Positions 1 through 23,034 of a stretch of DNA of 64,000 bases are shown here, in pieces. The position numbers and the translations under genes were made by a program. The notes beneath the pieces are model-generated. The model had not been told where the DNA came from and did not search any database. It was given only the letters and a program-made list of their open reading frames with translations. The DNA lies in the NCBI GenBank assembly GCA_050010755.1, contig JBEKKK010000001.1:1056001-1120000 (forward strand), given 5' to 3'. How positions within the stretch are numbered: the first letter of the stretch is position 1; every line of letters begins with the position of its first letter. The stretch is from Candidatus Bathyarchaeia archaeon (lineage in GTDB: Archaea > Thermoproteota > Bathyarchaeia > Bathyarchaeales > Bathycorpusculaceae).

Positions 1-580
1 CGGCCATTTGAAGGAAGCTGGATTGGAGTTCAAGGGAAACGTTACAGCAAAGCACTTGTTGCAGGTGCTGATTGAAGACGTAGGGTTGGAGAAGATAAAA
101 GAAATGGTCGTCAGGCCGCTTACAAACGTGAAAGTTGCTGAACACAACGGTTGCCACATTTTGAGGCCAAAGGAATATATCGGTTTTGATGATCCTGAGG
201 ATCCGAAAACACTCAAGACCTTGATTGAAGCGACTGGGGCAACATGTTTGGATTACTTGGATGAGATAGAATGCTGCGGTGCTCCAAGCGTTGGCGTGAA
301 CGATAAGGTCGCTCTACAGCTCGCAAGGGACAAGTTGAACCACATCAAGACTGTGGATGCGCAGGCGTTGATAACCATATGCCCGTTCTGTCACATCATG
401 TACGACACGAACGAGTTGCGCATCGAAAAAATGTTCAACGAGGTTTACGGTATTCCAATCCTGCATTACCCTCAACTACTGGGTTTGGCAATGGGGATGT
501 CGCCTGAAGAACTGGCTTTCAATGAACTTCGCGTTAACTGTTCAAAAATATTGGGACAAGTGTGTGAGGGTGGAAAGTAA
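1..580 (+). CDS. hdrB: Heterodisulfide reductase subunit B-like protein (CCG domain), 5' end outside window
   Basis: CCG-domain motifs HNGCH, ECCGA, TICPFC and IPILHYPQLLGLAMG; frame is open to the window edge; abuts mvhG. Confidence 0.85.
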   Translation, partial: GHLKEAGLEFKGNVTAKHLLQVLIEDVGLEKIKEMVVRPLTNVKVAEHNGCHILRPKEYIGFDDPEDPKTLKTLIEATGATCLDYLDEIECCGAPSVGVNDKVALQLARDKLNHIKTVDAQALITICPFCHIMYDTNELRIEKMFNEVYGIPILHYPQLLGLAMGMSPEELAFNELRVNCSKILGQVCEGGK

Positions 581-1561
581 ATGAGCGAAAAACTGAAACT
601 GGGTTTCTACTGGGCTGCAAGCTGTGGCGGGTGCGAAATCGCGGTGCTGGACATAAACGAGAAAATACTGGACGTAGTGAAAATCGCGGACATAGTGTTT
701 TGGCCTGTTGCTATAGACGTCAAGTACAAAGACGTTGAAGCCATGCCCGACAAGTACATAGACATATGCTTCTTCAACGGGTCAATCAGGACCGGGGAAC
801 AGGAACACATGGCCAAACTCCTCAGACAAAAATCCAAGACGCTCGTGGCGTTCGGCTCCTGCGCCCAAGAAGGATGCATACCGGGCCTAGCGAACCTTCA
901 TGACCGAAAAGAAATCTTTGACAAAGTCTATTTGGAAAGCAAATCCATCGCGAACCCGAAAAGAATCGTTCCCAAAACCGAGACTGAGGTAAAAGAAGGC
1001 GTGTTAAAGCTGCCGAAGTTCTACGATACGGTGAAAACCCTTGATCAGACCGTTGACGTTGACTACTACCTGCCTGGCTGCCCACCTCCTGTAAAGCTAA
1101 TAGCAACTGCCGTGGAAGCCATCGCAAATAATCAGCTACCACCAAAGGGCTCAGTGCTTGCACCATTAAAATCTGTCTGCGACGAATGCCCACGCAAGAA
1201 GGACAACAAGAAAATCTCAAAAATATATCGTGTCTACGAGAAGATACCGGAACCGGAGAAGTGCCTGCTCGAACAAGGCATAATATGCATGGGACCAGCA
1301 ACTCGTAGCGGCTGCGGTGCTCAATGCCTCACCGTTGACATGCCCTGCACAGGATGTGGTGGACCCTGCCCAAACTCTCCAGAACAGGGAGCAGCAATGA
1401 TGAGCGCAGTAGCTTCGATACTTGGGCTTGAAGGCGAGACGGAGCATTACAGTCAGGAGGATGTTGACAACTTGATGAATCAGATCAAAGATCCTCTTGG
1501 AACATTCTACATGTACTCTTTGCCATCGTCTATTCTTAGAAGGAAAGTGATGGAAAAATGA
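581..1561 (+). CDS. mvhG: F420-non-reducing [NiFe] hydrogenase small subunit (group 3c)
   Basis: ASCGGC, AFGSCA, YLPGCPP, VCDEC, CLLEQGIICMGPATRSGCGAQC, PCTGCGG FeS motifs. Confidence 0.92.
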   Translation: MSEKLKLGFYWAASCGGCEIAVLDINEKILDVVKIADIVFWPVAIDVKYKDVEAMPDKYIDICFFNGSIRTGEQEHMAKLLRQKSKTLVAFGSCAQEGCIPGLANLHDRKEIFDKVYLESKSIANPKRIVPKTETEVKEGVLKLPKFYDTVKTLDQTVDVDYYLPGCPPPVKLIATAVEAIANNQLPPKGSVLAPLKSVCDECPRKKDNKKISKIYRVYEKIPEPEKCLLEQGIICMGPATRSGCGAQCLTVDMPCTGCGGPCPNSPEQGAAMMSAVASILGLEGETEHYSQEDVDNLMNQIKDPLGTFYMYSLPSSILRRKVMEK

Positions 1562-20788: not shown

Positions 20789-21346
20789 TTGCCTACCTAC
20801 GAAGCCACCATAAACGGCAAACAAAGAAAAATCGAACTGAACAGAACCTCGCCAAACTCTTTCACAGCCAAGGTGGATGGCAAACTGCGGCAAATCAAAC
20901 TTCAAAGAGACGGAATCACTTCGGAAGAAGCCTCTGTCATAGAAATAGACGGCAAAACCTACAAAGTTGAACTGTCCAAAACCGAGCCGGGAAAGAAGAT
21001 TCCTGTCAAAGTGGAGGAAGCCAAGTTTGAAGTGGAAGTCCAGACTGCAAAGAGGGGACAGGCGTTTACGAGTTTCGAACCGACACTTCAAGTTGCCGCG
21101 AAAAAAACGGGAACGATGAGGAAGGCTGGTGTCGAGGGTGCGGTGACCGCTCCCATGACTGGCAGGATAGTTAAGGTCAAGGTGAGGAAGGGCGACCAAA
21201 TTAAGGCGGGCCAGGTTCTGTGCGTGGTTGAAGCGATGAAGATGGAGAATGAGATCTCGGCTCCCCGAGCTGGGACGGTTCAAGAGGTAAATGTTGCCGA
21301 TGGAACGCCTGTGAACGAAGGGGAAACGCTCTTCGTAATAGGTTAG
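20789..21346 (+). CDS. Biotin carboxyl carrier protein
   Basis: C-terminal biotinyl domain APMTG...[12 protein letters not shown] start 2 nt after the upstream stop. Confidence 0.92.
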
Positions 21347-23034
21347 AAAATGGAAGGCGGTTTGTACTCGCCGAACACTTCTCGCAAGGTTCGGCAGATC
21401 TCGCCCAACGTTGCATACTCCTTCACGGCTTCGAAGATGAGCGGCATTAGGTTCACGTTTTCCTGTTCAGCTGCCCCACGGAGCTTGTGCAAGCTTTCCC
21501 TGGTTTTGGCTTCGTCTCTTCGCTGCTTGACCATTTTCAACTGTTCGACAAGTCTCTTCTCGATGGCTGGGTCTAGCTGTAACAGTTTCATCGGAACCTG
21601 TTCTTCGCTCAGAAAGTCGTTAACGCCTATCACGGTTCGCTTCTTGGTTTCAACGTCCTTCTGGAAACTGTAAGCGCTTTCCGTGATTTCCCGCTGCATG
21701 AAACCCTTCTCGATGGCTGCAACTGCTCCGCCCATGCCGTCGATGTGTTCAATGTATTTCTGTGCTCTCTCCTCAATCTCGTTCGTGAGGGACTCCAAGT
21801 AGTACGCGCCTCCCAAGGGATCAGCAGTTTCCGTCACTCCACTCTCGTGGGCGATTATCTGCTGCGTCCTAAGGGCAACGGTGACTGCCTGTTCGCTCGG
21901 CAATGCGTAGGCTTCGTCGAAGGAGTTCGTGTGCAGAGACTGTGTCCCCCCAAACACGGCTGACAACGCCTGCAGCGCCACTCGGACGATGTTGTTGTAG
22001 GGTTGTTGAGCGGTGAGTGAAACACCGGAAGTCTGAGTGTGGAACCGTAGCATCCAGGAGTTCGCATTCTTGGCTCCGAAGCGTTCCCTCATGATTCGCG
22101 CCCACAGACGCCTCGCAGCTCTGAACTTTGCAATTTCCTCAAGGAAGTTGCTGTGTGCTGCGAAGAAGAATGACAACCTGCCTGCGAACTTATCCAAGTC
22201 CAGTCCTCTGTCGATCGCGGCCTGAACATACGCGATGCCGTTGGCGAGTGTGAACGCGATTTCCTGAACTGCCGTGGAACCGGCTTCTCGGATGTGGTAT
22301 CCGCTTATGCTGATGGTGTTCCATTGGGGCATGTTTCGGCTGCAATACTCGAAAATGTCTGTTACCATGCGCATCGAAGGCTTGGGCGGGAAAATGTACA
22401 TGCCTCTAGCGACGTATTCCTTCAGAACGTCATTTTGCACGGTCCCCCCAAGCTTGGGTTGCTCGACACCCTGCTTTTGCCCCACGACGGCGTACATTGC
22501 GAGCAGAACGTTTGCCGGAGCGTTAATGGTCATGGAAGTGGTGACCTTGTCGAGGGGAATTCCGTCAAATAAGACTTCCATATCTCGTAGCGTGCTTGCG
22601 CTGACTCCCACTTTACCTACTTCGCCGAGGGCCATTTGATCGTCACAGTCGTAGCCGACTTGCGTTGGAAAGTCGAACGCCACGCTTAAGCCTGTTTGGC
22701 CGTGGCCGAGCAGGTATTTGAAGCGTTGGTTCGTCTGCTCTGCAGTTCCGAAGCCCGCGTACTGGCGCATGGTCCAATATCTCGCTCGGTACATCGTTGG
22801 ATAAACGCCGCGGGTGAAGGGAAAATCTCCTGGAAAACCCAAATCAAGCAGGTAATCGACGTTTTTGGTTTCGATGGGAGTGTAAACTCGGCTGACTGGA
22901 ATATGGGAAGTTGTTGAAAACTCGCCTCTCTCTGGAAGCTTGTCGAAGCTTTTCAGGACTGTCTCTGCTTCCCATTTTTGCTTGTGCTGAACGATTTCAT
23001 CAAGCTTTTGCTTGTCAGATGGCAAGAGATGCAC
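21343..23034 (-). CDS. Methylmalonyl-CoA mutase family, substrate-binding (large) subunit
   Basis: [49 protein letters not shown]; no DxHxxG B12-binding domain; start approximate. Confidence 0.92.

Follow-up and report, generated by a model that had tools for sequence, protein, structure and literature searches.

The described systems that stand closest to the gene cluster analysed here are the Wood-Werkman cycle of Propionibacterium freudenreichii, the thiol:fumarate reductase (TfrAB) of Methanothermobacter and the enzyme set of the syntrophic propionate oxidisers Syntrophobacter and Pelotomaculum. The cluster occupies the first 23 kb of a stretch of 64,000 nucleotides (the window; assembly GCA_050010755.1, contig JBEKKK010000001.1, positions 1,056,001 to 1,120,000) from a Candidatus Bathyarchaeia archaeon, whose metagenome-assembled genome, referred to as G000, comprises 2.19 Mb in eight contigs and is 93.5% complete. 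It brings together a TfrAB-like fumarate reductase, a methylmalonyl-CoA mutase and epimerase, biotin-dependent carboxyltransferase subunits and part of an Mvh-Hdr hydrogenase operon, and probably represents a conserved bathyarchaeial cluster that interconverts fumarate/succinate and propionyl-CoA via the methylmalonyl-CoA pathway. Hardly any Bathyarchaeia are in culture, and what they ferment to and where their electrons go is deduced from genomes; a conserved and phyletically coherent succinate-propionate module would extend the metabolism predicted for the class to propionate formation or uptake and would provide a testable idea of electron disposal or gain in uncultured non-methanogens of sediment and peat. 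No description of a transcarboxylase, TfrAB or propionate cluster in Bathyarchaeia was found in the open-access literature searched, supplementary tables and subscription papers being outside the scope of that search.

With the P. freudenreichii cycle the locus and its genome share 12S- and 5S-type carboxyltransferases, a small separate biotin carrier, an epimerase, a B12-dependent mutase, a fumarate reductase and a malate dehydrogenase (MDH), together with a genome and genus in which no ATP-dependent biotin carboxylase was found. Unlike in P. freudenreichii, the carboxyltransferase subunits are nearer to PccB and PycB, with the 5S-type subunit missing its equivalog cut-off, and separate large and small subunits make up the mutase. 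The fumarate reductase, membrane-bound and quinol-dependent in the bacterium, is predicted to be soluble and is fused to CCG domains. Furthermore, no ScpC/Cat1-type CoA-transferase was found, for which SucCD together with an ADP-forming acyl-CoA synthetase (ACD), or a family-I CoA-transferase, would substitute, and fumarase was not found in the G000 assembly.

The likeness to Methanothermobacter TfrAB lies in an anchor-less two-subunit enzyme with SdhB-type clusters and two CCG domains, in the retention of the cluster cysteines and in the presence of Mvh-Hdr nearby. The differences are equally clear: TfrB displays only 32-33% identity, over residues 4-518, to full-length Methanobacterium homologues, both subunits score under the equivalog cut-offs, TfrA is nearer to Escherichia coli FrdA, one CCG cysteine is displaced, neither McrA nor ComA was found in G000, and the cluster contains propionate-pathway genes.

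Syntrophobacter and Pelotomaculum possess an equal enzyme set, including transcarboxylase, which is there run oxidatively, and Hdr-type complexes have been implicated in the electron flow of syntrophic propionate oxidisers, in the portion of that literature considered here. Those bacteria have membrane-bound succinate dehydrogenases that need reverse electron transport, in contrast to the soluble, CCG-fused bathyarchaeial enzyme, for which succinate oxidation with a low-potential thiol acceptor would be unfavourable. Among the Asgard archaea, the account of MK-D1, in the passages that deal with this point, takes SdhA, a biotin carrier and a transcarboxylase-associated biotin ligase as grounds for inferring propionate fermentation (10.1101/726976), and a passage on the Hermodarchaeota discusses a cytoplasmic fumarate reductase as a possible source of heterodisulfide beside HdrABC-MvhADG without Mcr (PMC8163825). 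The same passage already treats in print a function of Hdr apart from methanogenesis and the possibility that Tfr supplies disulfide in archaea without Mcr (PMC8163825). The Asgard cases belong to another phylum, and the texts considered, supplements being outside their scope, describe neither a conserved cluster of Tfr, methylmalonyl-CoA and Mvh-Hdr genes nor a biotin-carboxylase-less state.

The TfrAB-like enzyme and the methylmalonyl-CoA genes

Genes in the window were identified by open reading frame (ORF) listing and by Pfam and NCBIfam profile scans, and the 20 kb upstream of the window (locus L001) were also examined. All genes that an initial annotation of the window had named within 23 kb were recovered by Pfam or NCBIfam where it had placed them (Table 1), including the unrelated guaA, asnA and parvulin genes.

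The TfrA- and TfrB-like genes, which diverge from the epimerase-BirA-12S-5S-carrier genes, are separated by 13 nt and are followed, after 154 nt, by a gene for an AOR family protein and, after a further 14 nt, by one for a ferredoxin-like protein, which is probably the electron-transfer subunit of AOR. TfrA, which probably starts at 10832 or 10784, exceeds the cut-off of the general SdhA/FrdA model and does not reach that of the coenzyme M/coenzyme B (CoM/CoB)-TfrA equivalog (491.9 versus 718). Its best solved relative is E. coli FrdA (546 bits), and the flavin-histidine and substrate motifs are kept in the alignment. TfrB aligns end to end with the NCBIfam TfrB model, at 318.9 bits versus an equivalog cut-off of 385, and combines an SdhB-type [2Fe-2S] site with two CxxCxxCxxxCP motifs and two CCG domains. 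In an alignment of six sequences, all 12 cysteines of the three SdhB-type clusters are invariant, the third cluster motif having four cysteines, as are nine of the ten CCG cysteines, the tenth being displaced. The C-terminal half is HdrD-like, with an 'iron-sulfur-binding reductase' as its best solved match and HdrB reaching only 26 bits. Identity to a Methanomethylicia homologue amounts to 55%, and close relatives retrieved in a protein homologue search carry the name 'succinate dehydrogenase/fumarate reductase iron-sulfur protein'. Except for the Rossmann helix that binds FAD, no transmembrane-like segment was found in TfrA or TfrB, and the operon contains no anchor gene. The pair therefore displays the fusion of the B subunit and the lack of an anchor that define thiol:fumarate reductase, while staying below both curated cut-offs, and is predicted to be an enzyme of thiol:fumarate reductase architecture that belongs to a distant lineage.

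The initial annotation had drawn a parallel with methanogens, in which thiol:fumarate reductase produces the heterodisulfide re-reduced by Mvh-Hdr, and had pointed to mcr and to CoM synthesis. McrA was not found in G000, nor was ComA, CoB synthesis and the alternative CoM route not having been searched for; because ComA and McrA were not found, CoM and CoB are unlikely to be the thiols used. The redox potentials of the fumarate/succinate and disulfide/thiol couples favour fumarate reduction, and for this reason the fumarate-reducing direction is favoured for a soluble enzyme with a thiol-type module.

The biotin enzymes provide the second line of evidence. A 12S-type subunit, a small biotinyl carrier with the biotin-lysine motif and BirA are encoded in the same operon, along with a 5S-type subunit. 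A search with the Biotin_carb_C profile detected no biotin carboxylase in G000 or in any of the five genomes sampled from its genus, three of which are 97-99% complete, and none in five named relatives with the same gene arrangement (compact in L052 and L057). The Na+-pump beta subunit, OAD_beta, was likewise not detected in G000 and occurs in one of the 41 related genomes (G000 and 40 relatives of one order, which are kin and not independent samples). A Na+-pumping methylmalonyl-CoA or oxaloacetate decarboxylase was accordingly discarded for want of OAD_beta, and an ATP-dependent propionyl-CoA or pyruvate carboxylase was discarded for this genus for want of Biotin_carb_C, although the latter stays valid for relatives such as L053. 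Since the operon holds two carboxyltransferases, one carrier and a dedicated BirA, and neither a carboxylase nor a pump was detected, the only catalytically complete reading would be a carboxyl exchange between methylmalonyl-CoA and pyruvate that needs no ATP, catalysed by a transcarboxylase, the enzyme characteristic of the Wood-Werkman cycle. Relative to the three closest named genomes, dN/dS values are 0.02-0.06 for the 12S and 5S genes, 0.16-0.19 for the carrier and 0.02-0.09 for the 12S, 5S, mutase, TfrA and TfrB genes together; the low values for 12S, 5S and carrier indicate that these genes are maintained.

Biotin_carb_C is present in 11 of the 41 genomes, all 11 of which have the 5S gene, and no genome without 5S has one. 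In L053 (6078-8149, minus strand), genes for a biotin carboxylase (510 aa) and a second carrier (180 aa) lie between the epimerase side and TfrA, and weak carrier matches occur at the equivalent place in L036, L037, L044, L055 and L059. The occurrence of biotin carboxylase inside the cluster of some relatives limits the transcarboxylase reading to lineages devoid of it, that of G000 included. The simplest history would be an ancestral cluster of propionyl-CoA and pyruvate carboxylases that shared one biotin carboxylase, which was lost in several lineages, among them that of G000; lineages with and without it would illustrate how ATP-dependent carboxylases can give rise to a transcarboxylase.

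The mutase gene, the ORF of which is open to 23304 with a candidate GTG start at 23034, is convergent to the epimerase-BirA-12S-5S-carrier genes. A preference for isobutyryl- or ethylmalonyl-CoA had been named in the initial annotation as an outcome that would contradict its proposal. At two positions that we take to be substrate-carboxylate/specificity sites, the aligned window mutase has Tyr (RQ-Y-AGF) and Arg, like the methylmalonyl-CoA mutases (MCM) of human and Propionibacterium shermanii, while the solved 2-hydroxyisobutyryl-CoA mutase HcmA has Ile and Gln, so that the enzyme is predicted to be of MCM type.

A paralog of the mutase large subunit is encoded on contig C3 (C3:112618-115577, L002). 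It displays 61% identity to the window mutase and has Phe and Gln at the specificity positions, the signature of isobutyryl-CoA mutase; its operon looks isobutyryl-CoA-mutase-like and occurs more widely among relatives than does the copy of MCM type. The genes for a B12-binding subunit of 135 aa, the sole stand-alone one found, and for MeaB directly follow this paralog (C3:114329-115577), which means that the window mutase must share both.

The linking enzymes are encoded elsewhere. SucC and SucD score above the NCBIfam cut-offs and are encoded on contig C1, ~690 kb from the cluster, MDH reaches 390 bits with NF004863 (cut-off 283), an ACD beta subunit is encoded on C3, and a two-subunit family-I CoA-transferase (CoA_trans A and B) is also present; AcetylCoA_hydro-type (ScpC/Cat1-type) and family-III CoA-transferases were not found in G000. 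Among the links that the initial annotation had expected, MDH, SucCD, a CoA-transferase, the B12 subunit, MeaB, HdrA, HdrC and MvhD were thus located, and fumarase was the piece missing: neither the class I beta domain nor the class II C-terminal domain was found in G000. Of the 21 related genomes searched, 19 contain class I fumarase beta, three of the four congeners among them. The congener fumarase lies ~5.9 kb from a contig end, in a block of at least 11 kb for which blastn and tblastn found no counterpart in G000, and a true loss cannot be told from a piece absent from the bin.

Taken together, these genes would support the following route. Fumarate would be reduced to succinate by the soluble, anchor-less TfrAB-like enzyme, and succinate converted to succinyl-CoA by SucCD or the family-I CoA-transferase. 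The mutase, with the unlinked B12 subunit and MeaB, would then yield (R)-methylmalonyl-CoA, which the epimerase would turn into the (S)-isomer. Carboxyl transfer to the BirA-charged carrier would fall to the 12S-type subunit and onward transfer to pyruvate to the 5S-type subunit, giving propionyl-CoA and oxaloacetate at no expense of ATP. MDH and fumarase would close the cycle, the latter being found in relatives and not in G000, and ACD would free propionate with a gain of ATP. The Wood-Werkman-like pathway put forward in the initial annotation is accordingly upheld in its transcarboxylase portion, with neither biotin carboxylase nor OAD_beta detected, but because fumarase was not found the cycle is not closed in this assembly. 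To judge from gene content, the pathway is well supported for lineages without biotin carboxylase. Its net role would most likely be that of an electron sink, from pyruvate to propionate, in a fermenting, H2-metabolising archaeon, although the same enzymes could run in reverse and take up propionyl-CoA.

Conservation across Bathyarchaeia

Conservation of the gene order was assessed by mapping the window proteins by tblastn onto 63 loci around relatives of TfrB and 80 loci around relatives of the 5S-type subunit. For TfrB, 57 loci (L013-L069) were examined, of which 55 passed the filter, with the bacterial SdhB-only loci L070-L075 excluded; for 5S, 72 loci were counted after eight non-Bathyarchaeia loci (L155-L161 and L163) had been dropped. 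Only loci with enough flank enter each denominator.

Around TfrB, TfrA is adjacent in 47/48 loci, with AOR downstream in 33/42 and the ferredoxin in 30/37. On the upstream side, one or more of the epimerase, BirA and 12S genes are located within 10 kb in 26 of 34 loci; on the downstream side, Mvh or HycI is reached within 10 kb in 13 of 22, and both flanks, the methylmalonyl side and the Mvh/HycI side, are present in nine of 18; in L052, L058, L059 and L066, Mvh or HycI directly follows the ferredoxin. Around 5S, the carrier is found in 62/65 loci, the mutase in 55/59, 12S in 45/50, the epimerase in 36/48 and BirA in 34/48. The clustering expected by the initial annotation therefore holds in relatives; it is more than a chance feature of one genome and recurs in dozens of species-level Bathyarchaeia genomes. 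Compact clusters devoid of unrelated inserts occur in L052, L057, L106 and L150 (72-73% TfrB identity), with the order mutase / carrier-5S-12S-BirA-epimerase / TfrA-TfrB-AOR-ferredoxin; HycI-MvhA-MvhG comes next in L052 and L057, and HycI stands at the locus end in L150.

Presence and absence are more telling than adjacency. Full-length TfrB and 5S are each present in 23 of the 41 genomes, and 21 genomes have both; 5S was detected in 21/23 TfrB-bearing genomes versus 2/18 of those without TfrB. This patchy pattern inside one family indicates that TfrB and 5S were gained and lost together, the genomes being kin and the counts involving no independent-contrast test.

A possible instance of loss was observed in the congener G001 (77% complete), where a syntenic M24-mutase-carrier-5S-12S stretch (L173 = G001:C12:22000-41999, about 9500-16600) is decayed. 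The mutase gene contains 14 stops, the 5S gene eight and the carrier gene ten, and 12S is frameshifted, with the epimerase, BirA and parvulin genes intact; TfrB, MvhA and fumarase were not found in this incomplete genome. Either the module is decaying or the assembly is faulty at this place.

The Mvh-Hdr operon and alternative explanations

The hdrB gene cut by the window edge ends a run that comprises, in the upstream DNA and according to Pfam and NCBIfam, gltD-like, flpD-like, double hdrA, mvhD, hdrC and hdrB genes. All six subunits of MvhADG-HdrABC are thus encoded contiguously, in the order HdrA, MvhD, HdrC, HdrB, MvhG and MvhA, with hycI following, and the resulting hdrACB-mvhDGA-hycI operon is convergent to tfrAB-aor-fd. 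Orthologues of MvhA (at least 70% identity) are present in 34 of the 41 genomes. By its position, Mvh-Hdr is a candidate recycler of the thiol/disulfide pair for TfrAB, and a CCG-fused fumarate reductase beside it would offer a concrete pair for the question of what HdrABC reduces without methyl-CoM reductase.

The first two genes of the hdr operon (L001:13204-18724, plus strand) encode an NAD(P)-binding flavoprotein that is GltD/NfnB-like and an additional FlpD-like protein, and HdrA is of the double form (1021 aa; best model HdrA2), a combination that hints at a pyridine-nucleotide-linked Hdr variant. Just upstream (L001:12503-13093, plus strand), an RHH domain is fused to a GcvH-like domain; this protein was rejected as a lipoyl dithiol carrier for CCG enzymes, as it has Met at the position of the lipoyl-lysine of solved GcvH, and might serve as a regulator derived from an inactive lipoyl domain. 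Farther upstream (L001:9473-12274, plus strand), a 933-aa fusion of ACD alpha and beta parts with GNAT has the architecture of a Pat-type protein lysine acetyltransferase. It was rejected as a propionyl-CoA synthetase, given this architecture and the separate ACD beta subunit on C3. A second Hdr-type module is present on contig C2 (L174, G000:C2:152500-161500; 3834-7407), where an HdrD-like protein, consisting of a dicluster and two CCG domains and displaying 40% identity to the C-terminal half of TfrB, is encoded divergently to an 813-aa HdrA-MvhD fusion; the module is kept in relatives, those without TfrB included.

Several observations weigh against the proposed pathway or against its coupling to Hdr. 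Compared with solved chains, the 12S-type subunit matches Thermotoga maritima PccB (744 bits) better than P. shermanii 12S (1on3; 620 bits, full-length), and the 5S-type subunit matches PycB (551 bits) and OadA (499.5 bits) better than the transcarboxylase 5S subunit (461 bits). In NCBIfam, the 5S-type subunit of the cluster reaches 790 bits with NF006761 and 564 bits with the transcarboxylase 5S equivalog NF008984 (cut-off 827), the PycB/OadA models scoring higher. Biotin carboxylase is encoded in 11 of the 23 5S-bearing genomes, where propionyl-CoA and pyruvate may be carboxylated by ATP-dependent enzymes. The sole small B12 subunit and MeaB adjoin the Phe/Gln-type paralog and not the window mutase, TfrA lies within 10 kb of 5S in only 19/41 loci, and fumarase is missing from the assembly. 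Unrelated neighbours are equally syntenic (about 50-56%): an M24 peptidase in 27/48, isochorismatase in 21/41 and flavodoxin in 21/40 loci. Citrate synthase (PF00285) was found in none of the five genus genomes and in four of the 41 related genomes, Re-type citrate synthase not having been searched for, and its rarity also fits a purely biosynthetic reductive branch. An MvhA orthologue accompanies TfrB in 22 of 23 genomes, but is also present in 12 of the 18 without TfrB, which makes Mvh-Hdr near-universal in the order and independent of Tfr.

The comparable synteny of unrelated genes, guaA (25/41 loci around TfrB) among them, renders adjacency alone weak evidence of a common function. It might even be taken to mean that the genes have no function in common and merely sit on a slowly rearranging stretch of chromosome, but the joint gain and loss of TfrB and 5S, the compact loci that retain pathway genes only and the joint decay of the module in G001 make this very unlikely. 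It is similarly improbable that TfrAB is a type-E-like succinate:quinone oxidoreductase, with a CCG domain that serves membrane or quinone contact instead of thiol chemistry. CCG subunits do occur in non-classical quinone-linked enzymes, and TfrA most closely resembles E. coli FrdA and the classical SdhA models, sharing a Gln with its top-scoring solved chain, an E. coli FrdA deposited apart from the standard entry; on the other hand, neither subunit has a transmembrane segment, the operon has no anchor gene and the fusion matches the NCBIfam TfrB model end to end. A biosynthetic or assimilatory role deserves more weight, although we still consider it doubtful: an incomplete reductive TCA branch (oxaloacetate, malate, fumarate, succinate, succinyl-CoA and 2-oxoglutarate) would be combined with the uptake of propionyl-CoA from amino-acid or odd-chain breakdown, with no catabolic fermentation. 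The role of Tfr in Methanothermobacter is anabolic, the relatives with biotin carboxylase and a second carrier inside the cluster fit ATP-dependent carboxylation, and the only two strong PF00285 matches are in genomes without TfrB (G006 and G040). However, 16 of the 18 TfrB-less relatives are also without PF00285, so that the loss of citrate synthase does not demand Tfr; TfrAB is clustered with the mutase, epimerase and transcarboxylase genes and not with the distant SucCD; and without biotin carboxylase this genus could carboxylate propionyl-CoA only at the expense of oxaloacetate.

An H2-driven thiol cycle would add to the interconversion of fumarate/succinate and propionyl-CoA and would not exclude it. 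TfrAB would couple the oxidation of two thiols to a disulfide with fumarate reduction, and MvhADG-HdrABC would re-reduce the disulfide with H2, bifurcating electrons to ferredoxin, so that the fumarate/propionate route takes the place of methyl-CoM reduction. The fused architecture of the Methanobacterium homologues, retained in TfrB with all Fe-S cysteines and nine of the ten CCG cysteines, is consistent with such a cycle, as are the complete convergent hdrACB-mvhDGA-hycI operon, the recurrence of Mvh or HycI within 10 kb of TfrB (13/22) and the company of MvhA in nearly every TfrB genome. We nevertheless hold it to be unlikely, given that 12 of the 18 relatives without TfrB also have MvhA, that ComA and McrA were not found, that the Hdr-type module on C2 offers a further candidate, that convergent operons have no common promoter and that both subunits are under the CoM/CoB-Tfr equivalog cut-offs, with TfrA nearer to E. 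coli FrdA. The link between H2, a thiol/disulfide pool and this pathway drawn in the initial annotation consequently keeps the proximity of Mvh-Hdr in its favour and loses ground on the distribution of MvhA and on the missing ComA and McrA. More speculative still is a fuller proposal for non-methanogenic Bathyarchaeia, to which we assign a low probability. Electrons would end on fumarate as terminal acceptor in a soluble thiol cycle that depends on H2 and involves electron bifurcation, in which TfrAB oxidises a thiol other than CoM/CoB and Mvh-Hdr re-reduces the disulfide and makes reduced ferredoxin; succinate would be drained to propionate by an ATP-free transcarboxylase cycle, and the transcarboxylase would have been born by the loss of the shared biotin carboxylase. 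If true, the fumarate/thiol cycle would supply the physiological partner that has long been sought for Hdr in archaea without Mcr.

Features of the cluster and neighbouring genes

The features of the cluster are collected in Table 1. The start of birA is probably at 13372. Interspersed with them are asnA, two guaA genes, a parvulin gene, a 173-aa ORF without a Pfam match and a methyltransferase gene.

Table 1. Positions, strands and supporting profile matches of the cluster genes in the window
Feature	Position	Strand	Evidence
hdrB, 3' part (CCG domain)	2-580 (within 1..580)	+	PF02754; gene start upstream of window, L001:19690
mvhG-type [NiFe] hydrogenase small subunit	581-1561	+	PF01058; best NCBIfam VhuG 213.7 bits, under cut-off
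mvhA-type [NiFe] hydrogenase large subunit	1558-3012	+	PF00374; best NCBIfam VhuA 442 bits (cut-off 800)
HycI-type hydrogenase maturation protease	3061-3558	+	PF01750
Four-cluster-type ferredoxin-like 4Fe-4S protein	4979-5488	-	Fer4_11
AOR family protein	5503-7350	-	AFOR_N and AFOR_C
TfrB-like protein, SdhB-type Fe-S fused to two CCG domains, 521 aa	7505-9070	-	Pfam; NCBIfam TfrB end to end
TfrA-like Sdh/Frd flavoprotein	9084-10892	-	NF004724 874.5 bits (cut-off 826)
Methylmalonyl-CoA epimerase	12942-13358	+	TIGR03081 167.9 bits (cut-off 114.95)
Biotin protein ligase BirA, no HTH domain	13303-14166	+	PF03099 and PF02237
12S-type methylmalonyl/propionyl-CoA carboxyltransferase	16104-17702	+	PF01039 682.8 bits; TIGR01117 869 bits (cut-off 998.8)
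MFS transporter between 12S and 5S	17853-19226	+	PF07690
5S-type pyruvate/oxaloacetate carboxyltransferase (PycB/OadA/5S family), no own biotin domain	19242-20786	+	PF00682 (HMGL-like) and PF02436 (PYC_OADA)
Separate biotin carboxyl carrier, 1.3S-like	20741-21346	+	PF00364; AMKM motif near C-terminus
Methylmalonyl-CoA mutase large (substrate-binding) subunit, no B12 domain	21343-23034	-	PF01642 759 bits; TIGR00641 800 bits

The MFS transporter gene is inserted only in G000 and in two of its three closest named relatives (L085 and L086), being absent from L084 and from farther loci; its matches are generic, of the drug/H+ antiporter-like kind, and the family assignment is thus uninformative.

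Beyond the cluster, the window contains an archaeal type IV pilus locus (26350-34845), in which genes for a T2SSE ATPase and a T2SSF membrane protein accompany two pilin-like genes and several ORFs that Pfam does not match. At 36100-38883 (minus strand), a VWA-domain protein and an AAA ATPase of CbbQ/NorQ type form a pair, and an ORF of 553 aa without a Pfam match lies at 42828-44489, also on the minus strand.

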